A DNA stretch of 59,261 bases from Gammaproteobacteria bacterium (GCA_013001685.1 JABDMD010000163.1:1-59261), one strand, 5' to 3'. Counted from the stretch's first letter, positions 12,768 through 59,261 are shown. Made by a program: numbers and translations. Notes: generated from the letters alone by a model not told the origin.

Positions 12768-12768
12768 A

Positions 12769-13503: not shown

Positions 13504-13511
13504 TTAAAGTC

Positions 13512-14216: not shown

Positions 14217-14259
14217 TTAATTTACTAAATAATTTTTAAATAAACATGAGGTAAATATT

Positions 14260-40918: not shown

Positions 40919-41023
40919 AAATTGCATGTTGTTATGTGTTTCGAGCAAAGATGCTCACATAGGAGAATTTATATCAAGTATTTTCAATAAATTATTGATA
41001 TTTAGTAATTTAGACTTTAGTTA

Positions 41024-42638: not shown

Positions 42639-42639
42639 G

Positions 42640-43152: not shown

Positions 43153-43178
43153 AATCTTTTCCTTAAATTCCTGAGATT

Positions 43179-43685
43179 CTATGAGACAGGAGCATCGCCC
43201 AGTGAAATCTCTGGAAATAGTTCAGCACGTGTGAAACTGCCACGCTCATCTTCAATATCAATGGCTCGAACAGCATCCATTACCAAGACAAGACTTTCAT
43301 AACCAATATCTGGCTCAAGTAAAATTGAAGCAGCAACATTGTCTGGGTATTTATATTTAACAGCTTGCAAAGTCTCCGAAAGTTTAAGCACATCATAACC
43401 TTCTTCAGTTTTAGCAATTTCATGTCGCTGAAAGTTGCCGTTCTTATCTTGGATAATTAAACGGTCATCTTTGACAATTACTTCTAAAACAATACGTTTT
43501 CTATCAGGCTCTACTTGATTAGACGCGGCAGGAAGATGCAATTCTAGAACTGTAATCTTTGCAAACACTAACATGATGAGTAGAAATGGAACTAAAATCA
43601 CCATCAAATTCATGAATGGCGTTACACTGAGTTCCGCATCACTATTCTTTTGAGAATGCCTGCGTAAACGTCTTTTATTAAGCAT
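43179..43685 (-). CDS. ExbD/TolR family protein (AglQ-like)
   Basis: ELSVTPFMNLMVILVPFLL TM; EPDIGYESLVLVMDAVR; ELFPEISLG. Confidence 0.88.
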   Translation of the reverse strand: MLNKRRLRRHSQKNSDAELSVTPFMNLMVILVPFLLIMLVFAKITVLELHLPAASNQVEPDRKRIVLEVIVKDDRLIIQDKNGNFQRHEIAKTEEGYDVLKLSETLQAVKYKYPDNVAASILLEPDIGYESLVLVMDAVRAIDIEDERGSFTRAELFPEISLGDAPVS

Positions 43686-43708
43686 TTTTAATACCCTTAC
43701 TTACGCAA

Positions 43709-44452
43709 CTAAGGTGCTGGTGCAGGTTTACGATCGGTTACAAAGTTCAGAACTTTTACAGAAGCCATTTCAAGGCTATCTACAATTTCTGTAGTCTTAG
43801 TTGATAACCAAGCATGCATTAGCAATAGTGGTATACCTACCATCAAACCAAATGCAGTGGTATTCATCGCAACCGAGATGTTTGCAGACAAAATATCGGC
43901 TTTATCAGCTGGATTGGCTTCGGCAATCGAAGTGAAAGCACCAATCAAACCAATAATGGTTCCTAGCAATCCAAGTAATGTAGCGATGTTCGCAAAGGTC
44001 GCTAGATAGTGTGTGCGCTTCTCCAGTTTCGGTAGCACTTCCATCAAGCCTTCTTCCATTGCAATTTCTACATCATCACGACGACGTGATGATTTTGCAC
44101 GTAGAAAACCATAATGAATAATTCGACTTACCGCAGCTTTAGATTTTTCTGCAAAACTCATTGCTTGTGATAAATTTCCAGATGCTAATGCTGACTGTAA
44201 TTTATTCCATGCAAGCGTATTGCGTGCACGTGATGCTGAAAGATATAAATATCTTTCAATCGCAATCGCAATACCAATCGCAAGAATAATTGCAATCGGA
44301 ATCATGAATGGTCCGCCAGACTGGAAAAATGTAACTACAGTTTCATATAGGCTCGGATCATGCACTTCTGGCGTGGCAAGCATTTCTGCTCCATCCATTA
44401 ATACAGTCTCTGAACCATCTGTAGTGATGATTTCTGACCCGTTCTCTTCCAT
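43709..44452 (-). CDS. MotA/TolQ/ExbB proton channel (AglR-like)
   Basis: ANIATLLGLLGTIIGLI.AF, ISVAMNTTAFGL. Confidence 0.93.
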   Translation of the reverse strand: MEENGSEIITTDGSETVLMDGAEMLATPEVHDPSLYETVVTFFQSGGPFMIPIAIILAIGIAIAIERYLYLSASRARNTLAWNKLQSALASGNLSQAMSFAEKSKAAVSRIIHYGFLRAKSSRRRDDVEIAMEEGLMEVLPKLEKRTHYLATFANIATLLGLLGTIIGLIGAFTSIAEANPADKADILSANISVAMNTTAFGLMVGIPLLLMHAWLSTKTTEIVDSLEMASVKVLNFVTDRKPAPAP

Positions 44453-44520
44453 TTTTTTGCTCCTTAGCGTTAAACGCTTAAATATAATTCTAGTTTTTAA
44501 ACTAGATTAAAAAACTACTA

Positions 44521-44793
44521 TCAATAATACTGTTCGTAATAACTTACTTTTCTCTTGTGCACATCCTTGTCTACAGGTCCAAGCACTTCATCAATTAAAC
44601 TTTGTAATGGTGATCCATCTAAATCACCTGGTTCAGGTGCTTTCCATGGAACAATTACCAATGCCTTAGGTAGTTCACGGTTACCAATAACATCAATGCC
44701 TTCTAGTTCTGGCGTAATACCTGGCACTTCGTCTTCTGCTGATATTGAATAGCAGGGTAATAACAAAGCAGTTAGTATTAGAATTCTTCTCAT
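44521..44793 (-). CDS. small exported protein (GltF/CglF-like)
   Basis: Signal peptide; I..IGNRELPK.L.IVPWK motif; position between the TPR genes and the motor genes. Confidence 0.65.
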   Translation of the reverse strand: MRRILILTALLLPCYSISAEDEVPGITPELEGIDVIGNRELPKALVIVPWKAPEPGDLDGSPLQSLIDEVLGPVDKDVHKRKVSYYEQYY

Positions 44794-44816
44794 TTGTTGT
44801 TGCCTTGTCTGAAAGT

Positions 44817-45485
44817 TTAGCTACCTTGCTTCTTTAACTGCGACATCCAAGCAATAACTTGCTTGTCTTCCCCACCAGTAAGTTTTAAATACTCTTGATA
44901 ATGGCCCAACGCACAGTCTATTTTCCTTAAATAGACATCACACAAAATAGCTAGATTCAGATGAGCGTTTTTATAATCCGGATATGCGGACAAAGCTCTC
45001 ATATAAAGCTGCTCGGCCTCTTCAAACTTACCATCTTCACGATTCAAAATGGCTAACTGGTTCAGAGCATAAGGATTATTAGGATTGATCTTTAGAGCCT
45101 TTTCAAACGCAGTTCTAGCTTTAGCCATATCACCCAATTCTTTATGTGCTACACCAATATTTACCCATGGACCTGAAATGCGCTCGTCCATCTTGGCTAC
45201 TTTTTGCATTTCTAAAATTGCAGTATCGTAATTTTTTGCACGCATATGTTTCAAAGCAGTGTTATAAGCACTTGCAGTTTTCTTGCTAATACGAAAATTT
45301 GGTTGCGCTAAAATTTTACCTGCTGACTTACTAGCGGATTTTTCAGTTTTTGCGCTCGTTTTAGAAGCAGTTGTCGATTTTTTAAGGCTCGGTAAATTTG
45401 CACAACTAGTAAGCATCACAACTAGCATGCTTGCAGTAATACTAATAGCAACAAATTTAATAAATATTCTGAACAAGGTCTTCAC
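44817..45485 (-). CDS. TPR lipoprotein (GltE-like)
   Basis: Lipobox LTSC; TPRs; HLNLAILCDVYL motif. Confidence 0.85.
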   Translation of the reverse strand: MKTLFRIFIKFVAISITASMLVVMLTSCANLPSLKKSTTASKTSAKTEKSASKSAGKILAQPNFRISKKTASAYNTALKHMRAKNYDTAILEMQKVAKMDERISGPWVNIGVAHKELGDMAKARTAFEKALKINPNNPYALNQLAILNREDGKFEEAEQLYMRALSAYPDYKNAHLNLAILCDVYLRKIDCALGHYQEYLKLTGGEDKQVIAWMSQLKKQGS

Positions 45486-48273
45486 TCCTTTCAGCTTTTA
45501 CATATTGTGCAGGTGATAGCACAGCTAATTCTGCCAAACTCTTTTTAACCCATTCGTCATAAATATCATCAGAAATACGTGAAGCATTTAGCTCATGAAG
45601 TTCAATTGCCTGCTCTTCAAACGGATAAGCTTGTTCTTCTAAAAGAATTTCATATTGGTCAAATTCTTCCACCGACAAACCTGAGGGACGATCAGACTCC
45701 ATCATTGCTATAGCAAATTCCTGATAAATTTTTGCCGACCAATAAGTTGCAGCAGTAGTAACTTGCTGAACTTTATAATTACTCGCCGCTTCATAAGCAT
45801 CTAATGCAACTTGCATTTGTCTCTTCTTAAGCTTTAAATTTTTCTTTAATGGATGAAGCAAAAAGATTTGGCTAAATGCATCATATTCTGGCTTAGCAAG
45901 ATCTAAGGTCGCATTAGCAGCTAAAAACTTAGTGCGATCACTACGTTCTGATCCTGCTCTCGCATCGGCATCAATAATTTTTCGCTGCCAATTTAATTTA
46001 TCATCAATGTATTTTCGCTCTGTATACATGTCGACAAGCTTCTGCATCGCTTCCATTGCCGGTTCAGTAGGTTTAGGATGGTCTTTCACATAGGCAATTA
46101 AGCTTTTTTCAGCACCATAAAAATCTCCACCCTTACCGTATAGCTCTGCTGCGTGAAAGCGCGCTTCACGTTTTAAGGCTGGATCACTTGAACTAGTGCC
46201 AATAGCTTCATACTCTTTCGCAGCCTTAAGATGTTGACCTCCTTTATCATATGAAACGGCTAATTTTTGAGTGACATCACCCTGTAATTCATGACTAGGA
46301 TAACGTTGACGGAAATCTTCTAAAGTACTCGATGCACGATTCCAGTCTTCAAGCTCTAGCAAGGCCGCTGATGCATCATATTGTGCAGTAGCACGAATTT
46401 CTGCATCCGGCACTACTTGACCCACTCTTAAATAATGGGAAACCGCAGCATCGAGGTCACCCGCCTTCTTGCTGGCTTCACCTTGTTTATAAACTGATGC
46501 CGCTAATCTATCTTTAAGTGGATCACGTAACTCTTCGTTAGCATCTACTTTACCTAATGCTTCTATATAAGCCTTTTCAGATGCACCATATTGACCGGTA
46601 TCAAACGCAGAATTTGCTTTTACAGTCCAAGCAGAGAGGACTAGTTTCTTATCTGCATTAGAATGGTCGCTAATAATAATGTCAGACGCTTTAGTGGCGC
46701 GCGCATAATCTTTTCGAGCGTAAAGTTCTTCAGCTGTTACCGTCATCACCTTGGCAACTTCGGGATGTTCGGGGAAGTTTTCGGTAAATTTAAAGCTGCT
46801 ATCGATTAATTGATTTTTAATTACAGATTGTTGGGCAGCTTGTTGATCTTGTTTTAGCCATTCGTTGTACGCAATGATGGCCGCATAACCGGACTCAGCA
46901 GATTTCGGGTGTTTTTTATAACCATATGCAGTTTTTTCATATTCTCGCACTGCATTTGCATATTGCTTAGTTTCATAATGCACTTCAGCAAGGTGAAAAT
47001 TCATCTCGGAAGCTTTTTCATCTTGTGGGAAAGATTCTAAGTACGCATTATACCAAGTAGCTGCTTCATTATAATATTCTTTAGGTTTCTTACGCTCTTT
47101 TTGTGCGATTGAATGATAATGCTTAGCAAGATCAGTAATGTTTGATTTTAAAAAAGTAACTATATCATCAGACTGAGCAACATCATTATGTTGCCAATAT
47201 TCTGACTTTAAGTTGTAGTCAACAACGAATTGTTTTTTCGCGCGTAATACTTCAGATGGAAATTCACCTTTCTTATAAGCCTCCATAGACTTAATCTGAA
47301 AATGTGGTGCTTTAGGACTAAATTGATGTGTTTCGACATATTGTCTATAGGTATTGGCCGCATCACTCCAGCGTCTTTTGTCTAAATATTGTTTGCCTAA
47401 TCTTTCATATACCAAAATTTCATAAGGTTGTCTTTCAGACTCAGTATAAAATTTAGATACTTCTTCAGGACCACCTAAATAAGCAAAACTTAAACTAATT
47501 GCACGTAAAGTGTCATCTAGTAATTCTTGATCGGGTTGAGATAACTGAGCAATATTTTCCTCTTCAACTCCAGCAACTAACAAGTTATCAAGTACGGTAT
47601 TAAAAGATGGAATACCGTAATCATAATCAACTTGTTTAAAGTGCGACCAACCGTGTTTGTACAAAGAGTGTATATAAAAACGACCTTCTGTCCCTTGTTT
47701 GATTACTGCCTCATACGCATCTTCAGCTTGTGCATATTGTTTTTCTACAAATAAAATTTCAGCACGTCTAAACTGAGTTTCGCCAAAATAGTTAGATTCT
47801 GGGTATTCATAGACTAGTTGATCTAAGGCTTTGAGGGCTTTCTCATGTTGGCCAGTAAGTTCGTAGGCACGAGAGAGTTGATAGAGAACTCGATCTCTAT
47901 TCGGGTATGCCGAATGATTAGCTAAAACATCCTCGTAAAGCTTAATAGTTTCTTTATAAGAATTTTTATCAGGGGCTTGAACGTTCTCTGCCATTTGATC
48001 TTCGGTCTCTTCCATACGTAAATCGCCCAATCTACGCAATACTTCTGGATGAACATTATTTGGATCTTCGTTAACCAGTTTTTTATACTGACTGATTGCT
48101 TTAGTACGGCTACTTACAACAGGCACATCTACTTTAACTTTGACACGTTTCTTATTGAGACCACCAATCGTACTGCCTCTCTTACCACCAAAGCTTCCAC
48201 AAGCAACTAGCATACTGGCAACAGTAACCATCAAAATTAATTTATGTGCAAGCTTTACCATAACTTCCACCAT
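45457..48273 (-). CDS. large TPR lipoprotein (GltD-like)
   Basis: Lipobox LVAC; many TPRs; C-terminal Y..LLEEQAYPFEE.AI..HE.N. Confidence 0.85.
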   Translation of the reverse strand: MVEVMVKLAHKLILMVTVASMLVACGSFGGKRGSTIGGLNKKRVKVKVDVPVVSSRTKAISQYKKLVNEDPNNVHPEVLRRLGDLRMEETEDQMAENVQAPDKNSYKETIKLYEDVLANHSAYPNRDRVLYQLSRAYELTGQHEKALKALDQLVYEYPESNYFGETQFRRAEILFVEKQYAQAEDAYEAVIKQGTEGRFYIHSLYKHGWSHFKQVDYDYGIPSFNTVLDNLLVAGVEEENIAQLSQPDQELLDDTLRAISLSFAYLGGPEEVSKFYTESERQPYEILVYERLGKQYLDKRRWSDAANTYRQYVETHQFSPKAPHFQIKSMEAYKKGEFPSEVLRAKKQFVVDYNLKSEYWQHNDVAQSDDIVTFLKSNITDLAKHYHSIAQKERKKPKEYYNEAATWYNAYLESFPQDEKASEMNFHLAEVHYETKQYANAVREYEKTAYGYKKHPKSAESGYAAIIAYNEWLKQDQQAAQQSVIKNQLIDSSFKFTENFPEHPEVAKVMTVTAEELYARKDYARATKASDIIISDHSNADKKLVLSAWTVKANSAFDTGQYGASEKAYIEALGKVDANEELRDPLKDRLAASVYKQGEASKKAGDLDAAVSHYLRVGQVVPDAEIRATAQYDASAALLELEDWNRASSTLEDFRQRYPSHELQGDVTQKLAVSYDKGGQHLKAAKEYEAIGTSSSDPALKREARFHAAELYGKGGDFYGAEKSLIAYVKDHPKPTEPAMEAMQKLVDMYTERKYIDDKLNWQRKIIDADARAGSERSDRTKFLAANATLDLAKPEYDAFSQIFLLHPLKKNLKLKKRQMQVALDAYEAASNYKVQQVTTAATYWSAKIYQEFAIAMMESDRPSGLSVEEFDQYEILLEEQAYPFEEQAIELHELNASRISDDIYDEWVKKSLAELAVLSPAQYVKAERSEDLVQNIY

Positions 48274-50222
48274 TTCTTAGATTTTTCAGGTTGAGCATCT
48301 TCGGGATTATTTTCGTCTGCACCAGGAATAGTCGAAGATGCTGCAGCATCGTAAGCAGATGCAAGTTGGTAACGAGCATGTTTTTCGTAACCAGTCAGAA
48401 TTTTTTCTCGATGATTTAGCTCTTTAACTGCTACATGCTCTAAATAACGCGATTGTTCTTCAAATACACGATTTGCAATCGGTATAAGTCGTTTAATTTC
48501 CTTATGTAAAGCAAGTATGCGTGCCTCAAATTCATCAAATTTCTCAACACTTTCTGTTATAGCTCTCTTAATCGAAACACTTTTTTCTGGAGTGATAGAA
48601 AGATGCTTTTCTATTTCAGAGACTTCTTGCTTATGGTTCCATGATCGTTCGATATAAGCGCTATAGATTTGCCAGTGCATAATGCCACGCATGAGTGCAA
48701 TTTTTTCACTCATTTGTGCGATTTTATTATTTTCTGGTTCTTGAAGTTTTAACAACTCTAAACGTTGTTCCAGTTGGCTAATCTCTGCTAGTTTACGTTT
48801 TTCTTCAGCTGTAGCCAGTTGCATAAATGCATTATCGTTTTCAATTTCATTAAGCACGAAAGAAATACTGTCTTGCTGTGCTTGAAGCTTACTTAGATCT
48901 AAACCATTTAATCTTTGTTGTACAAGTGGCAAGTACTTGTGATAGCGAGCTTTGCGGGTATCCAACATTGTTAGATATATTGAAATATTTTCGTCCCAAT
49001 GCGCTAAGTTTTTCTTTAAGAACAATAAATCGCGAAAATTTTTCAGTGCTTCATGAAATTCATGCTCAGCTAAAAGCTCAGTAAAATATTTAACTTCTGG
49101 TAATTCTGGCAGGTCTCTAAGTGTCCAGAACCAACCCATTTGTGGCCCACCCTTGGTGCGATCCAATAATGCATCTACCAATACACCTTGTTCAATCTGA
49201 TTTGCAGAATAAGCAAGCTCTTTTGCTTCCTCTTGATATATATCTGCTGCTTGTTCATATGCTTGTACGGCTCTGCCAAGTAAACCCATTTCGTTATATG
49301 CATGTGCAAGCGCTAATACACCTTCTTGCACTTCTGAATGATAAGCACTTCGATTACGTAATTCTTGCAGTGGTGCTAAAGCTGCACTGTGTTTTTTCGC
49401 ATTGGTATTAGCCCAACCGATTCCAAGTAATGCTAAATTAGAGTAAAGACCTTCAAGACGAACTTTTTCTAAATACTTGATTGCATCCGCGGGACGATCA
49501 TTTTGAATTAAAGTTAAGCCTGAGGCGAGATTCGCTCTATCTCTAAGTGTGCGCATGGTTTCTGTTTTTGCTTTTAATTTACCAACCTTCTTAAGGTGCT
49601 CAATACCTTTGTCTACATTGCCTCGCTTTGTATAAGCTATACCGAGGTTATAGTCCGCATAGTTCTTATAGTTCTTTGGTGCCTTCCATTTATCCAAGCT
49701 TGAAATGGCAGCGTCATATTTACCCTGCGCCATATAAACTTGACCTGTTAACAGCTTTAATTCACCAAATACACTTTCTTGTACAGGTCCACTGACGTTA
49801 CTTAAAAAGTCTGCAGATTCATCAATGTAGCCACGTTGATAATAAATTTTTGCTAGATAGTAATAAGCACGATTCTTAATCGCATCACGCACATTACCTT
49901 GCAGCAATCTATCAAATATTCTTGAAGCTTCTTTGTGTAAACCGTATGAAAGATCTATTCCACCGAGCAATAATTCATCATCAGGTACATGATTAGTTGT
50001 TCTATTCAAATCACGTGCTGCAAGCAAATGAACAATAGAGGTAAAATAATCTTCTTGATAAAAATGGAATAATACTTCGCCATAATGAAGATCTTTAATA
50101 ATATTAGGTTGTTCGATATTTGCAAAAGACACTGCCGAACACAACGAAAGCACACAAATGCAAAAAGCCAAGTTAGCCTTGGCTTTAAAAACATTCAACG
50201 TTTTAGTCCTAGATAACAACAT
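48255..50222 (-). CDS. exported TPR/coiled-coil protein (GltC-like)
   Basis: Signal peptide, DLHYGEVLF.FYQ, TPRs, long coiled-coil C-terminal half. Confidence 0.8.
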   Translation of the reverse strand: MLLSRTKTLNVFKAKANLAFCICVLSLCSAVSFANIEQPNIIKDLHYGEVLFHFYQEDYFTSIVHLLAARDLNRTTNHVPDDELLLGGIDLSYGLHKEASRIFDRLLQGNVRDAIKNRAYYYLAKIYYQRGYIDESADFLSNVSGPVQESVFGELKLLTGQVYMAQGKYDAAISSLDKWKAPKNYKNYADYNLGIAYTKRGNVDKGIEHLKKVGKLKAKTETMRTLRDRANLASGLTLIQNDRPADAIKYLEKVRLEGLYSNLALLGIGWANTNAKKHSAALAPLQELRNRSAYHSEVQEGVLALAHAYNEMGLLGRAVQAYEQAADIYQEEAKELAYSANQIEQGVLVDALLDRTKGGPQMGWFWTLRDLPELPEVKYFTELLAEHEFHEALKNFRDLLFLKKNLAHWDENISIYLTMLDTRKARYHKYLPLVQQRLNGLDLSKLQAQQDSISFVLNEIENDNAFMQLATAEEKRKLAEISQLEQRLELLKLQEPENNKIAQMSEKIALMRGIMHWQIYSAYIERSWNHKQEVSEIEKHLSITPEKSVSIKRAITESVEKFDEFEARILALHKEIKRLIPIANRVFEEQSRYLEHVAVKELNHREKILTGYEKHARYQLASAYDAAASSTIPGADENNPEDAQPEKSKKWWKLW

Positions 50223-50230
50223 CTATAAAC

Positions 50231-50779
50231 TTATTCCCACTCCTTAACCACAAAGTCTGGTTGATGTTTTGGAGTTCGGTCGGTAATTTTTAACTCCAGA
50301 TACTTAGCACCCAATCCTTTATCGATAATACGATTTGCACCGCGTTTAAAATCCCTACCTTTAGGTCCCTTACCTACAAAATAAGCAACTAACTCATGCT
50401 CACCTGAAGGCAAGTTTCCAATATAAATTTGATGTACACCACCACGTAATAAAGCATCTACTTCACGTTCGGTATATAGATAATTAGCTACAATTTTTTC
50501 ATTCAATGTTACTTGCACTGAATCTAAATCAAAAAAATCACCCACATCAACCGATACATATACAGCAACCTGAGTGCTAGAAGGATAAAGTAACTCTTCT
50601 TCTAAGATATAAAGATCACGATTCAGCTCAAGCACTTCTTCTTTCAATACTTGAATATCTTCATCTAAACCCTGAAAGTCTTGATCTTCACTTGCATTTA
50701 ATTCACCAATATCTGCTGCAGCACTACAAACGTAGACCAACAAAATACAAGTAAAAAACAAAATAAATTTCTTATACAT
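50231..50779 (-). CDS. exported coiled-coil + beta-sandwich protein, unknown function
   Basis: Signal peptide from MYKKF (ATG 50779); LKEEVLELNRDL..LEEELL; no HTH. Confidence 0.75.
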   Translation of the reverse strand: MYKKFILFFTCILLVYVCSAAADIGELNASEDQDFQGLDEDIQVLKEEVLELNRDLYILEEELLYPSSTQVAVYVSVDVGDFFDLDSVQVTLNEKIVANYLYTEREVDALLRGGVHQIYIGNLPSGEHELVAYFVGKGPKGRDFKRGANRIIDKGLGAKYLELKITDRTPKHQPDFVVKEWE

Positions 50780-50814
50780 ATTTTTTCTCCACATACCCAA
50801 GCTAGTTATCTCAA

Positions 50815-51942
50815 TCAAAACCATGAAGAAAAATAGAATTGGATTGTTGTAGCATCAAATGAATATCCACTTCCTAAACTTCCCACATCTGTAACAGATT
50901 CAATTCCGGAGTAATCGTCATAGTCAAAATCCAAATACTCGATCGCAAGATTTAATGAAGCTGTGCGTAATAATTTGTAATCTTTAAATAAGTCATAACG
51001 AAGTCGACCACCTACAGCAAAGCTATCAAATGAACTCAGTTCTTTATCCCGTGCCATATACCTCAATCTAGAACTGAAATTGTCGCTATAAAAATCTGCT
51101 TTATCTTGTGTGTAATAGCGGCCATAAACATCAACAACCCATTGATTTCCAATATATTGTGAGTAATTTAGGTCAACGGTAGATGAACGAACATCCCAAG
51201 TGTCCCTATAAAACCGATAACCGAGTGATGTAGATGCACGATGCTGCCAATACTTAATACCTTTCAAAGAGTAAGCTTGCCCAGTACGTGTGTCTGGGTA
51301 CTCTTCTGAACCACTACCTAGCGAGACACCGTTTACAAAAACAAAGCGATATGGGTTGTTTAAAAAGCCTTCTTCTACTGTGGCTTCATAATCAAATGCC
51401 ATTACAAATGATTTAGTAATAACTTGTGAGATACCAGCTCTGAATGAATAACGATCTAGATCTTCTGCAAAACTATCTAGGTCAACTCTTTCTACATCAT
51501 CTGACCCGATTGAAGCGCCAATATTCATTTTTGTCATGGCACCAAACATTTCATGAGAAATATCAAAACTCACCATATTTGATTCATAATCGTCTTCTTC
51601 GCTATATGTGTAGGAAAGATCCATAAGAGTGTTGTCACGCAAGTAGGTGCCACCTAGCGTGTATTCATCTCTATCTTCTTCATATTTACTAGCACCAGCC
51701 AACACATCTGGTGATGCACCACTTATACTATCGTGATGGTAACCACCATAAACTGAATACTTTCCAGCAAAGTTTTTACGCACCAGCATAGTGGCACCGT
51801 CTACTTCAACACCACCGCCATCATAATAGTGATAACCAATATCTGCTCTTTCTTCAGGCAAAACTTCAGCCCAAGTATTTTGAATACTAAAAATACTAAG
51901 AATGAAAATTACTAGATATATTGTGTGTGTAGTCTTTATCAT
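50815..51942 (-). CDS. DUF3570 family outer-membrane beta-barrel protein
   Basis: Signal peptide, Y.GGG..V, D.ISGAS, E.DY.S, GFL.NPYR, YR.Y.D.W, RYY.Q..A.FY, terminal aromatic residue. Confidence 0.85.
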   Translation of the reverse strand: MIKTTHTIYLVIFILSIFSIQNTWAEVLPEERADIGYHYYDGGGVEVDGATMLVRKNFAGKYSVYGGYHHDSISGASPDVLAGASKYEEDRDEYTLGGTYLRDNTLMDLSYTYSEEDDYESNMVSFDISHEMFGAMTKMNIGASIGSDDVERVDLDSFAEDLDRYSFRAGISQVITKSFVMAFDYEATVEEGFLNNPYRFVFVNGVSLGSGSEEYPDTRTGQAYSLKGIKYWQHRASTSLGYRFYRDTWDVRSSTVDLNYSQYIGNQWVVDVYGRYYTQDKADFYSDNFSSRLRYMARDKELSSFDSFAVGGRLRYDLFKDYKLLRTASLNLAIEYLDFDYDDYSGIESVTDVGSLGSGYSFDATTIQFYFSSWF

Positions 51943-51956
51943 TTTAATTATTAAAA

Positions 51957-52223
51957 TTAGTTACAGCCACAACCACCGCCATGCGCGTAACCCGCACCGC
52001 GAGCACCTTCACGTGTATTGAATACATGTTGTCTATATTTGTTAGATAGTGGATCTTTATTAAAACTCATAATCGGATCAGCCAAATACTCACGCTCATA
52101 AGGCGCAACCCAAGGCTCAATATTCGGCAAACTTGGTAAACGGAAAGATGAACACGCACTCACAGATATTAAAATTGAAATAATGAAAATCGCTGGCAAT
52201 ACTTTTGTTGCTTTTTTAAGCAT
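51957..52223 (-). CDS. DUF4266 family lipoprotein
   Basis: Lipobox VSAC; PWV.PYER..LAD..M; REGA.G...GGGCGCN. Confidence 0.9.
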   Translation of the reverse strand: MLKKATKVLPAIFIISILISVSACSSFRLPSLPNIEPWVAPYEREYLADPIMSFNKDPLSNKYRQHVFNTREGARGAGYAHGGGCGCN

Positions 52224-52237
52224 AAATCACCTCTTTC

Positions 52238-52747
52238 TCATCCTTCTTTTCTTAAGGCCTGTATCTGTCTGTGATACTTCTCGATATAGCCTTTTTTAAA
52301 GCCACGATTTACATGCCTAATCTTTCCAGCACGATCAATAATGATGGTTGTTGGCATGGCCTTAATATCAAAACTTTTGCTAACGTCTTTCTCGGTATCA
52401 AATAACACTGGGAAATTAACCTCTAACTTATTTGCTAAATGAATAGCTTTAGATTGGTCTTCATCGAGATTGATACCTAATAATTCGAAGTCGTATGGAT
52501 CAAGTGATTCATGCAACTCGTTTAAATGTGGGATTTCTTCAGCACAGGGGCCGCACCAAGTGGCCCAAAAATTCAACATGACGATACGGCCTTTTAGTTC
52601 ACTCAAACGCACATTCTTTCCAGATGTACTTTTTAGAACAAAATCTGGTGCACTATCTGCTTTGATCTTTGCAAAAGCCACTACGCTTATGAAACTCATA
52701 AATAACAACGTAGTGATAGTAATTATAATCAGCTGTTTTTTTCTCAT
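52238..52747 (-). CDS. TlpA-like thiol-disulfide oxidoreductase
   Basis: NFWATWCGPC, MPTT.IIDR.G. Start moved to the ATG at 52747. Confidence 0.93.
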   Translation of the reverse strand: MRKKQLIIITITTLLFMSFISVVAFAKIKADSAPDFVLKSTSGKNVRLSELKGRIVMLNFWATWCGPCAEEIPHLNELHESLDPYDFELLGINLDEDQSKAIHLANKLEVNFPVLFDTEKDVSKSFDIKAMPTTIIIDRAGKIRHVNRGFKKGYIEKYHRQIQALRKEG

Positions 52748-52794
52748 AGCTTTTCGCTTCCTTGAATACTCAGTAATTCCGTAAATCAGACTCA

Positions 52795-53433
52795 TTAGAA
52801 AAACACACCTATATTCGCTGTAATTTCGAAATTGTTAGTAAATTCGTTATCTCCTAGCAAATCCGTTTCATAGACGATGTCACGCACATCCAGTCGTAGT
52901 GATAACCAGTCTGTTGGCAACACTTTCATGCCAAAACCCACGTTATAGGCAAACTCATCTTCATCATTAAACTCAACATTGCCTACCCCAAACATCAGGT
53001 AAAAACTACTGGTCATTGCAAAATTTCGCCCTAGAAAGATTTCGCCAGGAAAAATGTTGTAACCAATTGATACGTTGTAATAGTTAATGTCTTCGTTCTG
53101 TAGAATATTGAAGGTGGTAAGATTCTCTAATGTAGCGTCAGATGCTTCGGACATACCAACAGCGCCTTCAATAAAAAAGTCTTCAGTAATATGATATGCC
53201 GCTCGCAAGCCATAACTAGGTTCGGTACCAAAATCTTCTACATCTAAAACACCGTAATAAGCCGTGATTTCAAAATTTTCTGTATCAATACGTGGTACAA
53301 CGATATCTCTACGATAAATATCCGGTTCAATTACTTGCTCCTGTGTAGATTCAGGCTCAGGTGCATCATCTTCTGCATACACTGGCTGCAAAATAAAAAT
53401 GAGTAATAAAATAAGAATTAATTTAACTTTCAT
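52795..53433 (-). CDS. outer-membrane beta-barrel protein (GltA/GltB-like)
   Basis: Signal peptide, IDTENFEI, R.AYHITEDFF.E, alternating beta strands, terminal FF. Confidence 0.85.
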   Translation of the reverse strand: MKVKLILILLLIFILQPVYAEDDAPEPESTQEQVIEPDIYRRDIVVPRIDTENFEITAYYGVLDVEDFGTEPSYGLRAAYHITEDFFIEGAVGMSEASDATLENLTTFNILQNEDINYYNVSIGYNIFPGEIFLGRNFAMTSSFYLMFGVGNVEFNDEDEFAYNVGFGMKVLPTDWLSLRLDVRDIVYETDLLGDNEFTNNFEITANIGVFF

Positions 53434-53455
53434 GCGATGTCCTATAAGTTAAGCA

Positions 53456-54271
53456 TCAGAAAAAAAATGAAACCCCTGCGCTGAATTCATCAAACTCATC
53501 GTTCCGATCATCTTCTGATAGAACGATGTAACGTCGATAATCACCACGCAAAAAGAATCTTTTAGTTAAGTAATAACGCATTCCCAAACCTAAGTTGGCC
53601 AAGTCATCTTCAGTTTCTATAACTTGGATTAATGCACCTTTTGGTTCGTTTTCAAAACGACCATAGCCAATAGTAAAATGTGGCGTGAGACGCCAATCAG
53701 GGAAAGGTGTGGAAACTAAATTAACAGCATATATATCTGAACTGGATAATTTGCCTGCCACTTTCGAAACTTGAAATTCAAGTGCAATATTCTCGGTAAA
53801 CTTATATGCGAGTCGAACGGAAACTATTGGATCGCTATCAAATTCACCTGCTGAGATTCCAAATTCAATGCGACGATGTAGATAGTCATCATATAAAACA
53901 TCTCTAAATGATTTTGGAATACCTGCTACCGTTAAGGTTTGTTCCATTTGCGCACGACTTACCCAACCCTCTACACCACGATCATTCCTGACTTTAAACC
54001 AGTCAGTTTTGCGCTTCATAATATCTATCCAATCATGGCGTTTAACCACATGAAAAATTGGATAACCTCGACCTGGACCTGTGTGCAATTCAATGTAAGG
54101 GTCAACGATCTTTACGCGTTGATATTCTTTTTCTGCAAAAGCATTAGAAAAAGGTGCAAATACAAGCACAAAAAATAAAAGCACTACAAATGAGTGAGTT
54201 ATATTTTGGAAAGAATCAAAAAAATATCTACAATTAAAGTAATTTTCTTTCATAGAATTTATGGTGCGCAA
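53456..54271 (-). CDS. bacterial SH3 domain + outer-membrane beta-barrel protein; start uncertain
   Basis: DPYIELHTGPGRGYPIF...WFKV...GWV (SH3b) followed by an 8-strand-like barrel ending SFFF. Confidence 0.85.
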   Translation of the reverse strand: MRTINSMKENYFNCRYFFDSFQNITHSFVVLLFFVLVFAPFSNAFAEKEYQRVKIVDPYIELHTGPGRGYPIFHVVKRHDWIDIMKRKTDWFKVRNDRGVEGWVSRAQMEQTLTVAGIPKSFRDVLYDDYLHRRIEFGISAGEFDSDPIVSVRLAYKFTENIALEFQVSKVAGKLSSSDIYAVNLVSTPFPDWRLTPHFTIGYGRFENEPKGALIQVIETEDDLANLGLGMRYYLTKRFFLRGDYRRYIVLSEDDRNDEFDEFSAGVSFFF

Positions 54272-54783
54272 CCTGCTACATTAACCGCAGGATTAGCCAT
54301 GATTAATGTGCAGCTAGGAATAGTGGCTGGTGCTATTGAACATGCTGAGCCATCTGTAGGAGCTGAGATAGAACGCCATTCTGAAATTGCGTTATAACAA
54401 AGACTTGCTGTATTAAATCGTGCACCACCGGTAGGATGCCCTGACCCTGTAGCTCTAGTTAAGAGTAGATTATTATTTAAAGTTCGCGCTTCAACAGCAT
54501 TGAAGTTCATCATCATTTCTATAGAACCCATTGCCGCACCAGGTGTTAAACCAAAGCCTGCTGCTGGGACACCACTAGGTAAGTTATGGCAACCATTTTG
54601 TGAACAAGACTGCCCATCTGATGTGGTGTTATGCATTATAGGATCTACACATGTCTCATAGAGATTGATGCATAGGCTTACACCACTGTTAGGAAGTGAT
54701 TCGTTGGATGTACTGTCACATCCTTGTAATAAAATGATTGGTGCTATTGCGACCAGCAGCACCAGTCGCAATATTGATTGCAC
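54259..54783 (-). CDS. Cys-rich lipoprotein with an atypical CX4CH heme motif
   Basis: Lipobox LQGC; CSQNGCH; distal GHP; resembles the last heme domain of the upstream gene. Confidence 0.7.
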   Translation of the reverse strand: MQSILRLVLLVAIAPIILLQGCDSTSNESLPNSGVSLCINLYETCVDPIMHNTTSDGQSCSQNGCHNLPSGVPAAGFGLTPGAAMGSIEMMMNFNAVEARTLNNNLLLTRATGSGHPTGGARFNTASLCYNAISEWRSISAPTDGSACSIAPATIPSCTLIMANPAVNVAGCAP

Positions 54784-54804
54784 GACAAACCTCTGTTTTA
54801 TCTA

Positions 54805-57738
54805 CTAATTTAGACAGGTTGGATTACTAGCTTCACCCATCATAAGCCAGGTCAAAATTGTGTCGTAAGAGGATCCTGGACCAGTGTCTAAGAAAACCGG
54901 TCGAGTGGCACTAAGCGGATCATTGATATCCACAAGAATCTGTGGATGCGGTAGATTAGGAGCAACATTGTCCGAAATAGGACGTAATAACAAATCATTG
55001 TTCATTGGATCACAAAGATTATTTATCATTGCGCGCGTAACATTGAAGTCACCAGCTTGATTACCTGTTAGGACAAAACGATTGAACTCATCTGCTTCAT
55101 CGTTTTCATCTGCAAACTGAGCAGGATCAACACTAGAGTCTCCACTAAAGCCTTCCGGTGCATGGCAAGACATACATTCAGCTTTTAGTATTGGATGAAT
55201 CTGGTCATTAAATACAGTTCGACTTACTGTTCTGCTCGAAACAATCGCATCTCGAACAACATACTGTCCATTTACAAGTTCGTAAGGTTCGTTTGTATAC
55301 TGTGCACCAATATCTACCCAAGTAGAAATTAGCCATTTTTCATCGGCTGTTAACATTGAAGCATGATCAGTCACTCCAATATCGTAACTGCCACCTGCTC
55401 TCAACTTAGTATTAAAAATAGTTTCAACTAAGTGACTAGTTCGCGAACTGTTTGCTGAGCTGCCTACGCGCACTAACGCTGGACCACGTGGGAATACTAC
55501 ACGGCCGCTTTCTCTAACAATTGGTGGAAGCGGTATACCATTCTCATCAACTCTGAATGGCCCACGCATTAATTGATCATAAGAAATTATATGCCCTGCA
55601 AATCCAGATAACCCACCTTCAAGTGTAAGTCCTGCTGAAATTGGATCACTCAACAAGCTATTTTTGTGGCAGCTAACACATGTATTCGCACCGCGGTCCT
55701 TTTCCCAAATTGGTTGAATATGTGTTACATAATCAATTCGACCATTTACAGGAATTGGAGTATCTAAATTATCAAGCGCTAATTTAAAGTTTTGCTCCAA
55801 ACCACTTGACCAATACTCTGTAAAGTCAGCACTAATAGGACTCAAACTTGGTGCACCTTGATTATTCAATCGCGCACGAGTTTCAGCCATAGTTTCTGCA
55901 CCTAATGCATTTGCATGACTACCCGCTATGGGAGAAACGTTTAATGCAGATTCAGCACGTCTCGGTGAATGACAACCACTACATGTTCTAGTTTCACCTG
56001 GACGCACTTGCAGCCAGTTCGTATGCGTCTGGAATGCTCGTCCGTCTTTATCCAATACACTAATAGTTAAAGCAGAGTCAGCTGGAACCTTTGCTAATAT
56101 AGAGCCATCAGGTTCTACAGGAACATATCCCAACACTTCTTGCATTTCAAAATTGGTACGGCCAATCGCACTTCTAGAAATTCCTGGTGGGGTTGGCAAT
56201 GCACGTGTTACACGTGCAAAGTAGCCTGGTCGATTTAAATAACTTGCGTTATTTGGATCTTTCATCGCTAATAAATCTGGAACACCGCCATTTTTAGGAA
56301 TATTTTCACCTAATGCAGGTACAAGTACGCGATCGCCCATAATATCTAAAAAGTCAGTGTGGTAAACAGACTTTACACCTATCACACCCATACCTTGACC
56401 GTTACCTAAACCATTTGGCTCAGCAGCCATTATTGGATCAACAGGTTTCTCAGGAATAATTAATGGGTAATCACTTAATGCGCGTGGGAAAAGTGGCACT
56501 GGATCTACTAACGCTTTACCTGGTGAATCGGTTTGTACAACGCGTGCAACTTGCGAATCAAAATCTAGCATCCAAATTTGGTACTTCGTAGGACCAAATA
56601 CTTGTTTAACACTACCATTAAACGGATGGGTTTCTGTTGGTATTCCACCAAATTGTGCATTTGGTGCAATTGCATAAGAAACGACTGCACGGTTAGTTCC
56701 ATCCCATAGTGGCATTGGCGTGGAATAACGACCACCCGGTGAGAAACTTCCATCAAAGGTTACAACCTGGTTATTAAAGTACATGTCGATTTGACCATTG
56801 CAACCCGCAGGCACACCGGGAGCTGGTTCGCAATGCTCTGAATAATTAGCAGTATCAATTGAAACTATGGTTCCACCTTCATCGGTACCAGATAGTGGCA
56901 TTAATGTAGACATGATTCTTCCATTTCTTTGCTCCATGGGATGCAAGAAAGAGTTACCAGGACTAAACGCACCATATAAAACAAATAAATCAGTACCATC
57001 TGGATTTACTGTAAAAATCGGAAAGTGATTTCGATTCGCTAAATGATCCCAACGACTAAACATAATTCGCCCATCTTTGAGTACAGTAGGGTTGCGATCA
57101 TGACTTTGGTTAAATGAAATCTGAGTAATGTCTTGTGTAGCAGGATCCAACACATGTAATTGTAATGCTGGTTCTCTTTCGTATTCATCTAATGTTTTAT
57201 GTTTTGCAATATTTTGATCCGTCATCATTTCCTGCATACGCTTTTGACGATTTGAAGTAAATACGATTCTTCCGTCAGGCAAATATGCAGGATCCACATC
57301 GTCGCCAAATTCAGCGACCACGTTATCAGTTATCAAAGGAGCATATTGTTTAGTGGCAACATCCATTTCCCATAAGCTGAATGTTTCATCATTAGGACCA
57401 CGCATAGAGAAAACTACTTTAGTAGCGTCAAAATTAACCGAAGGATCAGAAACATCACCTTGACCTTGCGTATAAGCCGCGGTGATATTCATAGGTAGTA
57501 TTACTGGAATTGAGGCATCCTTATAAATGAGGTCACCACCAGCTGAAAAGGTAACGCCATCGGTAGGATCACCAATCGCATCCAAATTTCTTTGAGCATA
57601 TACAACAGGGAAATCACCATTGATAGTCGTAAACCCTTCTGATGATGTAGATGAACCCGTCTTACAACTAGGGAGTACTAACAGTGCACATAGCACTATA
57701 ACTGTCGCCACCCAAATATGTGTAAAATTCCTTTTCAT
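54805..57738 (-). CDS. multiheme beta-propeller lipoprotein related to hydrazine synthase alpha (HzsA-like)
   Basis: Lipobox LPSC; TolB/PD40-like repeats (DP.YLPDGRIVFTS.R, DGRIMFSRWD); VEPDGS...VPA...GETRTCSGCH; further CVSCH and CMSCH. Start moved to the ATG at 57738 (GGAG RBS). Confidence 0.85.
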   Translation of the reverse strand: MKRNFTHIWVATVIVLCALLVLPSCKTGSSTSSEGFTTINGDFPVVYAQRNLDAIGDPTDGVTFSAGGDLIYKDASIPVILPMNITAAYTQGQGDVSDPSVNFDATKVVFSMRGPNDETFSLWEMDVATKQYAPLITDNVVAEFGDDVDPAYLPDGRIVFTSNRQKRMQEMMTDQNIAKHKTLDEYEREPALQLHVLDPATQDITQISFNQSHDRNPTVLKDGRIMFSRWDHLANRNHFPIFTVNPDGTDLFVLYGAFSPGNSFLHPMEQRNGRIMSTLMPLSGTDEGGTIVSIDTANYSEHCEPAPGVPAGCNGQIDMYFNNQVVTFDGSFSPGGRYSTPMPLWDGTNRAVVSYAIAPNAQFGGIPTETHPFNGSVKQVFGPTKYQIWMLDFDSQVARVVQTDSPGKALVDPVPLFPRALSDYPLIIPEKPVDPIMAAEPNGLGNGQGMGVIGVKSVYHTDFLDIMGDRVLVPALGENIPKNGGVPDLLAMKDPNNASYLNRPGYFARVTRALPTPPGISRSAIGRTNFEMQEVLGYVPVEPDGSILAKVPADSALTISVLDKDGRAFQTHTNWLQVRPGETRTCSGCHSPRRAESALNVSPIAGSHANALGAETMAETRARLNNQGAPSLSPISADFTEYWSSGLEQNFKLALDNLDTPIPVNGRIDYVTHIQPIWEKDRGANTCVSCHKNSLLSDPISAGLTLEGGLSGFAGHIISYDQLMRGPFRVDENGIPLPPIVRESGRVVFPRGPALVRVGSSANSSRTSHLVETIFNTKLRAGGSYDIGVTDHASMLTADEKWLISTWVDIGAQYTNEPYELVNGQYVVRDAIVSSRTVSRTVFNDQIHPILKAECMSCHAPEGFSGDSSVDPAQFADENDEADEFNRFVLTGNQAGDFNVTRAMINNLCDPMNNDLLLRPISDNVAPNLPHPQILVDINDPLSATRPVFLDTGPGSSYDTILTWLMMGEASNPTCLN

Positions 57739-58003
57739 TACCAACTCCAAAAATGTATGAAGATCCTTCTCTATGTAAAAACTCACGTAGATTCAGTCAT
57801 TAACATCAAAAAAATTGACGTTATAACCGCTCTTACGTAATAGCCCTATGTCTCTGATTTAAAAGAACTATATGAACTGATTATTCTCTGGTTAAATGAG
57901 AGGAACCATGACAGGAGTATCAACGGTCAAAACAAACAGACTAATGGTATTAATAATTACCGTACTGAATTAGAAAAAATTTATTCAGTATGTTAGGTGT
58001 GAA

Positions 58004-59047
58004 TCACTTCACACTAGAATTGGAATTTGAAGAGTTTTGTGACTTTTTTTGTTCTTTTTCTAGGCCTTGTGAATAGTAAAGTTTACCTTGCTTATCAACG
58101 ATCACTCCTTCCACACCCTCTAAAATATTCAATAGTGCAAGACCTTTATCTGGTCCCATCACAAAGATACTGGTAGACAATGCATCTGTGGTTGTCGAAT
58201 CACTCGCAAGTATCGAAGCGCTACGAACCTCGCTTGCTGAATTACCTGTCGTTGGATGAATAATGTGATGATATTTCTCACCATCTTCAATAAAGAATCT
58301 CTCATAATCTCCAGATGTAGAAAGAGCTTCGTCTTGTAAGGGCAACATAACTATCACTTCTTCTGTATTTGCAGGATCTCGAATACCCACCAACCAAGCA
58401 CGCCCACGACGGTCTCCAAGTAAACGAGTATCACCACCAGCTGAGACTAATGCATGCTTAATTCCCAGATTACGTAAATGTTGAATCGATTGATCCACCG
58501 CAAAACCTTTTGCAATCCCTCCCAAATCAATTTTTACACCATGCTTTAAATAGCTAATACTCAATTGATGTTTGTCCAACACTAAATTTTTATAATCAAT
58601 GAGTAGCTTTGCAGCCGCAACTTCTTCTTCTGTGGGTTTTATTTCTTTTCGATAATTATACAAGTGACCAACACTTGCATAGGTAATATCAAATGCTCCA
58701 TTGGTAAGTTGCGAAAACTCAATTGACTTTTCAATCAATTCAAATAAATCTTGATCGACTTCTATTGGCCCTTCGTGCGCATACTTATTTATTTTCGATA
58801 ACTGACTTTGTTCAATGTAAGGACTCATCAAACGATTAACACGATCCATTTCTGCGAGCACTTTATCTATGCCCTTTTGACGCACATCTGCATCTGCATG
58901 CCATATTTCAACACGGATTGTTGTTCCCATGATGGCTTCATCTTCTGTCTGCCATTCAGCACTTAATTGCGATGAAAATGCAAAAAATATAAAACAGGCC
59001 AGAATACGGAAGCTATTCAAAAACATCGATATAAATATATATTTCAT
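58004..59047 (-). CDS. apbE: FAD:protein FMN transferase
   Basis: MGT, GAFDIT, IDLGGIAKG, GGD, STSGDYE, HHIIHP.TG, DALST. Confidence 0.96.
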   Translation of the reverse strand: MKYIFISMFLNSFRILACFIFFAFSSQLSAEWQTEDEAIMGTTIRVEIWHADADVRQKGIDKVLAEMDRVNRLMSPYIEQSQLSKINKYAHEGPIEVDQDLFELIEKSIEFSQLTNGAFDITYASVGHLYNYRKEIKPTEEEVAAAKLLIDYKNLVLDKHQLSISYLKHGVKIDLGGIAKGFAVDQSIQHLRNLGIKHALVSAGGDTRLLGDRRGRAWLVGIRDPANTEEVIVMLPLQDEALSTSGDYERFFIEDGEKYHHIIHPTTGNSASEVRSASILASDSTTTDALSTSIFVMGPDKGLALLNILEGVEGVIVDKQGKLYYSQGLEKEQKKSQNSSNSNSSVK

Positions 59048-59171
59048 ATAGGAATTGAAAAATTTAAACTGTGGGATAATAAGAATAAGTTAGACTCTAA
59101 CAAAGAATTCGAGTTCATATAATATGGACATTATACTTATAATGTATATCAGTGAATCAACAAGAACCTAT

Positions 59172-59261
59172 ATGACTTCAAATAACACTAAATCTGATTC
59201 TATTCAGCATAATCCTAGCTGCATGGATGACTTTGATCCAGCTTCTATAGATGCCAAACAA
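59172..59261 (+). CDS. probable 5' end of molybdopterin molybdotransferase MoeA (partial)
   Basis: MTSNNTKSDSIQHNPSCMDDFDPASIDAKQ. SCxDD(F/Y)DPxS resembles the N-terminal extension of beta/gammaproteobacterial MoeA; only 30 codons are visible. Confidence 0.5.
   Translation, partial: MTSNNTKSDSIQHNPSCMDDFDPASIDAKQ

Follow-up and report, generated by a model that had tools for sequence, protein, structure and literature searches.

What does a protein built like the alpha subunit of hydrazine synthase (HzsA) do in a proteobacterium outside the anammox bacteria? The question is raised by a gene on a 59,261-nucleotide stretch of DNA (hereafter the window) from a Gammaproteobacteria bacterium (GCA_013001685.1, JABDMD010000163.1:1-59261), which an earlier note, made from the sequence alone, had singled out as encoding a hydrazine-synthase-alpha-like triheme lipoprotein and as probably the functional payload of its gene cluster. 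To our knowledge, hydrazine synthase was long held to have no relatives. Here we describe the protein, its family and the operon in which its gene lies, and we lean, with modest confidence, towards the view that the protein forms the haem end of a thiol-flavin-haem relay in the cell envelope.

An HzsA-related lipoprotein with three haem motifs

Positions are those of the whole window, features lie on the minus strand unless otherwise stated, and residues are numbered on the 977-amino-acid (aa) form of the protein; coordinates are collected in Table 1. The open reading frame (ORF) spans 54805..57786 (-) and opens with GTG, and the ATG at 57738 yields the 977-aa form (MKRNF...), which opens MKRNFTHIWVATVIVLCALLVLPSC and has the same start and length as an identical database protein. 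Relatives were compared in a close alignment (20 relatives, 46-79% identity) and in a wide one (53 relatives, 29-79% identity). The lipobox seen by the earlier note reads LVLPS-C25, with the cysteine unchanged in 20/20 and 53/53 aligned relatives, and the three CxxCH motifs lie in the translated ORF exactly where that note had placed them: CSGCH at residues 586-590 (55969-55983), CVSCH at 687-691 (55666-55680) and CMSCH at 855-859 (55162-55176). Its candidate distal ligands are His792 (DHASM; 55363-55365) and the histidine of the pair His931-Pro932 (PHP; 54943-54948). All three motifs, H792 and H931-P932 are invariant in the 20 close relatives, an agreement that exceeds chance. Across the wide set, motifs 1 and 2 are kept in 53/53 sequences and H590 and H792 each in 52/53, while domain 3 is present in 43/53, always together with motif 3 and H931 (43/43), and missing from the other 10; both the motifs and the candidate histidines are thus conserved in orthologues.

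These features are best explained, as far as sequence can tell, by a Sec-exported, lipid-anchored c-type cytochrome, for which we infer haem attachment. In Escherichia coli, lipoproteins are sorted by the residue at +2 of the lipobox. Here this residue is Lys26, the sole basis on which the outer-membrane location proposed earlier may be suggested.

The predicted structure places the protein firmly beside HzsA. An AlphaFold2 model calculated from the 53-sequence alignment (mean predicted local distance difference test score, pLDDT, 85.5; predicted template-modelling score, pTM, 0.83) was compared with the PDB by Foldseek, which returned chain 5C2V_A, HzsA of 'Ca. Kuenenia stuttgartiensis', as the top match (E 1.1e-31, TM 0.66 normalised by target), followed by TolB (E 1.9e-11). 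VIA-align superimposed residues 41-835 of the model on residues 55-808 of the chain (Z 35.7, root-mean-square deviation 2.8 Å over 595 residues), so that the HzsA-like fold suspected from the sequence is indeed predicted. As this match takes in the propeller, the middle domain and the first cytochrome domain, which is of class-I type, residues 835-977 represent an addition, a duplicated cytochrome domain. The alignment with TolB covers residues 31-419 only (Z ~27.9, 267-274 residues), which together with a Pfam match to the PD40 repeat (E 2.7e-07) bears out the beta-propeller repeats of the earlier note.

The segment VPVEPDGS..VPAD..RPGETRTCSGCH, to which that note had also drawn attention, is the region matched by the HZS_alpha hidden Markov model of Pfam (PF18582; residues 519-590, 55969-56184; E 2.4e-20, 73.3 bits against a cut-off of 26.6), and a scan of the whole genome (2.64 Mb, 99% complete) found this domain in a single copy, at 55969-56184. 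When the family profile was aligned with the PDB, 5C2V_A was again recovered (E 7.5e-35) in a single colinear stretch that pairs profile 503-802 with chain index 492-771; published residue numbers are obtained by adding 27 to the chain index, as checked on 564 Tyr = Tyr591 and 745 His = His772 (PMC12758564). In this alignment motif 1 pairs with the CSGCH of HzsA haem alpha-I, motif 2 with the CAMCH of haem alpha-II, and H792 with the distal His772. A single-sequence phmmer comparison paired motif 3 with CAMCH, which would make motif 3 the counterpart of haem alpha-II; the domain duplication accounts for this pairing, and it was rejected, since the profile alignment and the structural range both give motif 2.

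Features tied to hydrazine synthesis itself are missing. The histidine of motif 1 is followed by S-P-R-R where HzsA has Y-G-S-Y, and an ungapped alignment puts R594 at Tyr591, a position occupied by Arg in 20/20 and 39/53 relatives and at which Tyr is not among the five commonest residues. No conserved propeller cysteine that could serve a zinc site was found in the 20 and 53 relatives, the lipobox C25 being the sole invariant Cys upstream of the haem motifs, so the Cys303/His587 zinc site of HzsA is without a counterpart. In this comparison, which is one of aligned sequences and not of a structure, H792 falls on His772 and the Tyr591 position is altered. The HzsA equivalog of NCBIfam (NF052339) gives 80 bits where 800 are required, with a match over residues 523-592 only, and in agreement with the earlier note no HzsC-like gene (CCP_MauG) was matched in the window or the operon, the two matches of the genome lying on other contigs (C179 and C55). 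Because the tyrosine, the zinc cysteine, the equivalog score and the partners all fail, the protein is not a hydrazine synthase, though it shares the HzsA alpha fold and ancestry. With the Tyr ligand and the zinc-site Cys gone, ordinary ligation of haem 1 by His590 is most likely, and bis-His ligation would best explain the residues conserved around haems 2 and 3.

The same observations bear on whether the protein might process nitrogen oxides or hydroxylamine in some other way, for instance by detoxifying nitric oxide or hydroxylamine at haem 1. The HzsA fold, the HZS_alpha middle domain and the haem position are held in common, and the distal His of haem alpha-II, which is absent in one group of homologues (clade I; PMC12758564), is kept. 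However, the equivalog score, the loss of the Tyr591 ligand and of the His587/Cys303 zinc site, the lack of the beta/gamma subunits that make and channel hydroxylamine, and the absence of any nitrogen-cycle gene among the operon's Pfam/NCBIfam matches make such an enzyme very improbable.

Compared with HzsA, therefore, the protein keeps the three-domain fold, the aligned alpha-I and alpha-II motifs and the distal His, while sharing only 17-22% identity, and differs in the Arg at the Tyr591 position and the lack of a conserved Cys303 equivalent, in the third haem domain (835-977) and lipoprotein anchor, in having other operon partners and neither HzsB nor HzsC, and in its aerobic or facultative proteobacterial hosts. 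Set against HzsA, the only relative to have been characterised, we regard it as a new variant: its haem 1 is probably ligated in the canonical way, it has a further haem domain and a lipid anchor, and its operon partners are flavin, thiol and motor proteins in place of the beta/gamma subunits.

It is not the only one outside the anammox bacteria, where more than 600 structural matches to HzsA, none of tested function, have been described (Hagglund et al., 2025; PMC12758564). From these, clades I-IV were picked for adjoining beta-gamma homologues and belong mainly to the Planctomycetota and Desulfobacterota; clades I-III have an FG-GAP protein and clade III has ABC binding proteins nearby (PMC12758564). 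Tyr591 and Cys303 are absent from all four clades, His772 is missing in clade I, and clades II and III have no haem alpha-II; the zinc-site Cys is not universal even among anammox bacteria (PMC12758564). The present proteins resemble clades I-IV in carrying HZS_alpha outside anammox, in a canonical-looking haem alpha-I pocket and in that Tyr591 and Cys303 are not conserved; they differ from the clades as described in that source in keeping haem alpha-II with its His, in the third haem domain, and in their flavin, thiol and motor neighbours.

The protein belongs to the database family of 'HzsA-related protein' and HZS_alpha proteins. A word-indexed search in which 8000 candidates were scored gave at least 2515 relatives at E <= 0.001; PF18582 is present in all 120 matches listed, the source being nearly always gammaproteobacterial metagenome-assembled genomes (MAGs). 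An exhaustive HMMER search of representatives at 50% identity returned 4411 clusters at E <= 0.001, of which 2086 remain at 1e-10 and 330 at 1e-30. Among the relatives from the word-indexed search, two Thioalkalivibrio proteins (P0086 and P0091) show 45-46% identity over 98% of the length, and UniRef names P0091 'HzsA-related protein'. When genomes of the class were sampled evenly, HZS_alpha occurred in 25 of 201 (22 of the 170 high-quality ones). With these numbers, and with non-anammox homologues already published (PMC12758564), the non-anammox context to which the earlier note pointed is not unusual: the family is large, labelled in the databases and functionally unstudied, and the protein is one more member of it. 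We found no literature on this proteobacterial clade or on its tie to the flavinylation module discussed below, the supplementary trees of PMC12758564 lying outside the scope of the search.

A conserved operon of redox and motor-like genes

The HzsA-like gene is the second of 18 genes that run from 59047 to 41024, all on the minus strand and with short gaps (Table 1). For the comparison of gene order, one genome per species was used and 586 of 601 pattern hits were confirmed as relatives; the best 80 of these 586 loci were taken, so that the sample leans to close relatives. A neighbour was counted if its strand and order agreed with those in the window, over the loci with enough flank. The hosts comprise Thiotrichales-like and other gammaproteobacterial MAGs, Nevskia, Acidiferrobacteraceae, the Steroidobacter group, many Burkholderiales (Rubrivivax, Methylibium, Ideonella, Rhizobacter, Scleromatobacter) and one Nitrospiria MAG, and the order of the operon is kept across Gamma- and Betaproteobacteria. 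That the HzsA-like protein is the payload of this cluster is plausible, as the earlier note had it; what that note missed is a published ApbE/DUF3570/TlpA/DUF4266 flavinylation module joined to a Ton/Tol-like motor set.

Table 1. Features of the HzsA-related gene and of its operon in the window, with the share of loci in which each neighbour is found
Feature	Position	Strand	Basis	Loci with neighbour
ApbE (FAD:protein FMN transferase), operon gene 1	58004..59047	-	Pfam E 1.6e-82	53/72 (upstream, same strand)
HzsA-related three-haem lipoprotein gene, 977 aa	54805..57738	-	ORF, Pfam HZS_alpha, model, 5C2V_A match	
Signal peptide and lipobox, residues 1-25, LVLPS-C25, Lys at +2	57664..57738	-	Sequence, C25 conservation	
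TolB-like beta-propeller, residues ~41-420	56479..57618	-	PD40 repeat, VIA TolB Z 27.9	
Middle domain, residues ~421-640, with HZS_alpha match and haem motif 1	55819..56478	-	Pfam, profile alignment	
Cytochrome domain 2, residues ~641-830, haem motif 2 and candidate distal His792	55249..55818	-	Profile alignment colinear with HzsA alpha-II domain	
Extra cytochrome domain 3, residues ~831-977, haem motif 3 and His931-Pro932	54808..55248	-	Beyond HzsA match end (residue 835)	
174-aa lipoprotein, C-x4-CH at residues 60-66 (54586-54606)	54259..54783	-	Conserved ORF, putative paralogue of domain 3	
SH3 domain and small outer-membrane beta-barrel (OMP-SH3)	53456..54271	-	Pfam OMP_b-brl, SH3_3	64/65
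Small outer-membrane beta-barrel TIGR04565 OMP_myx_plus (OMP_myx)	52795..53433	-	NCBIfam E 6.6e-43, 146.5 bits vs cut-off 60	63/64
TlpA/ResA-like thiol-disulfide oxidoreductase, CGPC at residue 81	52238..52795	-	Pfam AhpC-TSA, Redoxin, Thioredoxin (E 2.6e-31)	60/64
DUF4266 lipoprotein, C-terminus GGGCGCN	51957..52223	-	Pfam E 1.3e-21	58/62
DUF3570	50815..51942	-	Pfam E 1e-37	55/58
197-aa exported protein	50231..50824	-	No Pfam/NCBIfam match	47/55
TPR proteins: 655 aa, 48255-50222; 938 aa, 45457-48273; 222-aa lipoprotein, 44817-45485	44817..50222	-	Pfam TPR	TPR655 47/55; TPR938 42/51
90-aa ORF, ExbB-like, two ExbD-like, TonB-like, PDZ-like 229 aa	41024..44793	-	Pfam	
ExbB-like	43709-44452	-	Pfam MotA_ExbB E 3.9e-28	
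Two ExbD-like	43179-43685, 42640-43152	-	Pfam ExbD E 1.1e-13, 1e-15	
TonB-like	41652-42638	-	TonB_C E 1.4e-4, 22.7 bits, just below 24.6-bit cut-off	

In one locus (L006) the gene before ApbE is divergent, which makes ApbE the start of the operon. A 265-base-pair (bp) non-coding gap (57739-58003; about 263 bp in L006) without an Rfam match separates ApbE from the HzsA-like gene. Over 41000-59261 Rfam gave 0 matches at E up to 0.1, and between 54200 and 59261 neither promoter-like sites (16, against 15.5 expected from shuffled sequence) nor terminator-like sites (1, against 3.8) were in excess. Searches of Pfam and NCBIfam returned no match for the 174-aa, 197-aa and 90-aa proteins. In the ESM Atlas the 197-aa protein falls only into unnamed or mislabelled clusters with no Pfam family, and the automatic name 'AraC regulator' looks wrong for a secreted protein. 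The PDZ match of the 229-aa protein is weak (E 8.7e-4).

Directly downstream of the HzsA-like gene lies the 174-aa lipoprotein with a C-x4-CH motif, a spacing recognised for haem c (compare the name of NCBIfam TIGR01904). Of 67 loci, 53 carry an ORF with this motif, 100 aa or longer, in the interval that separates the HzsA-like gene from the SH3 barrel; two further loci have CxxCH instead, although the ORF in one of them (L078) starts inside the HzsA-like match and may be its C-terminus, and the remaining loci show no such ORF or an evident mis-pick by the script. Over 22 aligned members, C22 (the lipobox), C60, C65, H66, H116 and W136 are invariant. Aligned by hhalign, residues 30-140 of the lipoprotein match residues 831-968 of the HzsA-like protein (probability 94%, E 1.4e-7), with the haem motifs, H116 and H931, and W136 and W964 paired. 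To judge from this alignment, the lipoprotein is a monohaem paralogue of domain 3, by which the operon would encode a fourth probable haem site. A complex prediction of residues 500-977 with four haems against the 174-aa lipoprotein scored 0.00 (mark 0.32), which is evidence neither for nor against an interaction.

Some loci encode a two-haem form, in which the sequence stops near query residue 820, without domain 3 (L067, L071, L076, L077, L079 and L080; also L070 and L075); in several of them the TPR genes lie upstream, on the opposite strand or out of range. In the six two-haem loci checked, a gap of 54-155 bp precedes the SH3 barrel gene and there is no C-x4-CH gene, and in the loci examined domain 3 and this gene are present together or absent together.

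The neighbours further downstream correspond to a module known from a survey of flavinylation, in which ApbE was shown experimentally to flavinylate the DUF3570 protein of Chlorobium luteolum at two [S/T]GA[S/T] sites (Meheust et al., 2021; PMC8238504). The survey also reports gene clusters in which ApbE and DUF3570 occur with a thioredoxin-like protein and with a DUF4266 protein whose C-terminus carries a CXC; some of these clusters include DsbD, and their function was called uncertain; 25 DUF3570 clusters include a VIT1 iron transporter (PMC8238504). The main text of that paper holds 0 mentions of a haem protein, HZS or hydrazine, and its supplementary tables may still list the domain. As in those clusters, the four components are adjacent and co-oriented here and DUF4266 ends in a CXC, its CGC being kept in 38/38 aligned homologues. 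The DUF3570 of the window has two candidate sites of ApbE type, DSISGAS at residues 71-77 and DVLAGAS at 79-85, with SGAS at 74-77 and AGAS at 82-85, each preceded by D-x-x. Unlike the clusters in the main text of that survey, the module stands between a three-haem cytochrome and a Ton/Tol-like set, and DsbD, like CcmE, is encoded elsewhere in the genome.

The model of DUF3570 (pLDDT 88, pTM 0.81) has 16 long strands and the translation ends in ..SSWF; a Foldseek search with it found generic outer-membrane barrels only (FadL, OmpG, PelBC, 4Y25; E ~1e-10 to 1e-7, TM 0.3-0.66). The loop with the two sites (residues 71-85) is modelled with low confidence between strands 3 and 4, on what appears to be the long-loop side. 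Long loops of outer-membrane barrels are usually extracellular, and the position of the loop raises the question of which way the flavins face.

This arrangement could suggest a conduit across the outer membrane, in which the flavinylated DUF3570 barrel and the lipoprotein cytochromes would serve extracellular iron, manganese, sulfur species or oxidants. Such a conduit would agree with a predicted 16-strand barrel that ends in Phe and has its flavinylation loop on the usually extracellular side, with the action of ApbE on DUF3570 and the VIT1 genes of related clusters (PMC8238504), with carriers such as Acidiferrobacteraceae, Thioalkalivibrio, Thiohalobacter, Thiodiazotropha, Rubrivivax, Methylibium, Rhizobacter and 'Bacterium MnTg04', and with the presence of the organism in sediment and beach-sand metagenomes from 10 studies. 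However, ordinary heterotrophs (Ideonella, Nevskia, Steroidobacter) are carriers as well, and no metal-handling gene is found among the operon's Pfam/NCBIfam matches. The genome has few multihaem cytochromes, with 12 ORFs containing at least two CxxCH motifs, four haems and two flavins would be a short chain next to known porin-cytochrome conduits, and the loop topology derives from a model and a general rule. We consider a conduit of this kind quite unlikely.

The motor-like half of the operon has a counterpart in the literature. A 'core complex' of aglR, aglQ, aglS, gltC, gltD, gltE and gltG was described by Luciano et al. (2011; PMC3169522) as a single operon of unknown function in Gamma- and Betaproteobacteria, Geobacter and Fibrobacter, with non-gliding Gamma- and Betaproteobacteria included; its members are a TolQ-like protein, two TolR-like proteins, a TonB-like protein and three TPR proteins, and one extra gene accompanies them. 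The region 41652-50222 (-) of the window presents the same cast (ExbB, two ExbD, TonB-like and three TPR proteins) in one operon, a likeness judged here from domain families. Unlike the present gene order, the available text of that paper draws no link to cytochromes or flavinylation.

These neighbours lend some plausibility to a mainly structural role, in which the protein would be a TolB-like periplasmic part of a Ton/Tol-like machine and the haems redox sensors or stabilising cofactors. The propeller, which aligns with TolB over residues 31-419, is the most conserved domain; ExbB, two ExbD, the TonB-like protein and the 938-aa TPR protein, which matches the YbgF/CpoB model (E 8.1e-27), make up the cast of Tol-Pal, and the AglRQS/GltCDEG complex is known from Gamma- and Betaproteobacteria (PMC3169522). 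Like the present protein, TolB itself has the propeller fold and is encoded in one operon with a motor of TolQRA/ExbBD-TonB type and a TPR protein resembling YbgF. On the other hand, the present protein has three haem domains and no match to the TolB N-terminal domain, the TolB equivalog (TIGR02800) reaches 22.3 bits against a cut-off of 343, and the two-haem form occurs where the TPR genes are elsewhere or unseen in the flank (L067, L070, L076, L078, L079). The strict conservation of three haem motifs and two distal His, and the constant company of ApbE, TlpA, DUF4266 and DUF3570, all of them redox-cofactor proteins, are hard to explain without redox chemistry; we hold such a role to be unlikely.

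A proposed thiol-flavin-haem relay in the envelope

We suggest that the redox half of the operon is better read as a relay. Thiol exchange is a two-electron process and c-type haems carry one electron, so that flavin mononucleotide (FMN) bound to DUF3570 would be a natural adaptor between them, and the operon reads as a thiol-flavin-haem relay. Reducing equivalents would enter by thiol-disulfide exchange, from DsbD to TlpA and on to the C-terminal CGC of DUF4266. The FMN attached by ApbE to the DUF3570 barrel in the outer membrane would turn two-electron into one-electron steps, and electrons would reach, possibly by way of the C-x4-CH lipoprotein and then haems 3 and 2, a site at haem 1 formed by the propeller and the middle domain. 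There a periplasmic or outer-membrane substrate would be reduced, or oxidised if the flow were reversed. The relay would either sit on the inner face of the outer membrane or span that membrane, and its chemistry may be coupled to an envelope machine driven by the proton-motive force, as the co-conserved TPR, ExbB, ExbD and TonB-like genes suggest. The distribution of conserved residues is in line with a site at haem 1: invariant columns make up 26% of the propeller and 23% of the middle domain, as against 15% of haem domain 2 and 10% of haem domain 3, which argues for a functional site around haem 1 and not for a pure wire.

Several points weigh against this relay and should be read with it. 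M617 (50/53), H572 (50/53) and H195 (53/53) are possible sixth ligands of haem 1, and a six-coordinate haem 1 would be an electron carrier and not a catalytic site. In HzsA, haem alpha-II is of low potential and bis-His ligated, has had no function proposed for it, and reportedly lies too far from the other haems for efficient electron transfer (Versantvoort et al., 2025; PMC12607021). The catalytic haem with a two-haem wire that the earlier note had envisaged is unproven, and an HzsA-like geometry, in which alpha-II is too distant, would break the wire proposed here too. Of 59 DUF3570 homologues from these loci, 13 have the strict [S/T]GA[S/T] motif one or more times and none has it twice, most of the 59 reading S-N-A-S ... 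T-T-A-S, and flavinylation may consequently not be general. By the usual barrel topology the modelled site loop of DUF3570 would be on the extracellular side, away from a periplasmic cytochrome. ApbE stands on the expected side and strand in 53 of the 72 loci with enough upstream flank, and has no match in 16 of them; the synteny figures as a whole rest on the closest 80 of 586 loci. Finally, gene neighbourhood is no proof of physical or functional coupling to the motor genes.

The thiol-flavin-haem relay nevertheless remains the reading that we prefer. A more ambitious version would join all parts of the operon into an envelope redox machine of a kind so far unrecognised, with one electron path (TlpA, DUF4266, flavinylated DUF3570 and the HzsA-fold cytochromes with their three haems and the one C-x4-CH haem) to or across the outer membrane, a Ton/Tol-like motor powering or gating it, and a new catalytic site at haem 1; we think it improbable that all of this holds. 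If it were true, a motor related to the core complex of gliding motility would work with a haem-1 site that shares an ancestor with the hydrazine-forming site of anammox bacteria.

Wider setting and other genes of the window

That the complete HzsA alpha fold, with haem 2 and its candidate distal His, is retained in a large clade of Proteobacteria provides a hint at the origins of HzsA. The gene order described here moreover unites three published and functionally unsolved pieces, namely the HzsA homologues, the flavinylation module and the Agl/Glt-like core complex; in the literature searched, no publication was found that links these three at the level of an operon. If the link is functional, it would represent an envelope redox system common among Proteobacteria of sediment and soil. 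The biology of the operon is not specific to this window, and cultured carriers in which the unit is accessible include Thioalkalivibrio, Ideonella and Scleromatobacter.

DNA of the organism was detected in 20 runs from the 10 studies mentioned above, mostly of sediment, marine sediment and beach sand, with one protist metagenome and one unlabelled run. None of the 24 runs listed was an RNA run holding the organism. Two runs labelled 'metatranscriptomic', and flagged as probably DNA, gave short contigs in 14 and 10 of 30 operon bins, among them one contig of 974 nucleotides at 56883-57849.

The rest of the window consists of ordinary chromosomal housekeeping genes. At 36301-37494 (-), a 397-aa ORF without a Pfam match combines a zinc-ribbon-like pair (CPKC...CSGC) with a Gly/Ala-rich hydrophobic C-terminal half. 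A trio of genes at 3956-7732 (+) resembles the flavin adenine dinucleotide (FAD)/iron-sulfur oxidase GlcD/GlcE/GlcF. The genes at 9211-15273 (+) encode a periplasmic binding protein with a Tat signal, two permeases, two ATP-binding cassette (ABC) ATPases and a member of the formamidase/acetamidase family, and look like a system for the uptake and hydrolysis of amides or urea.

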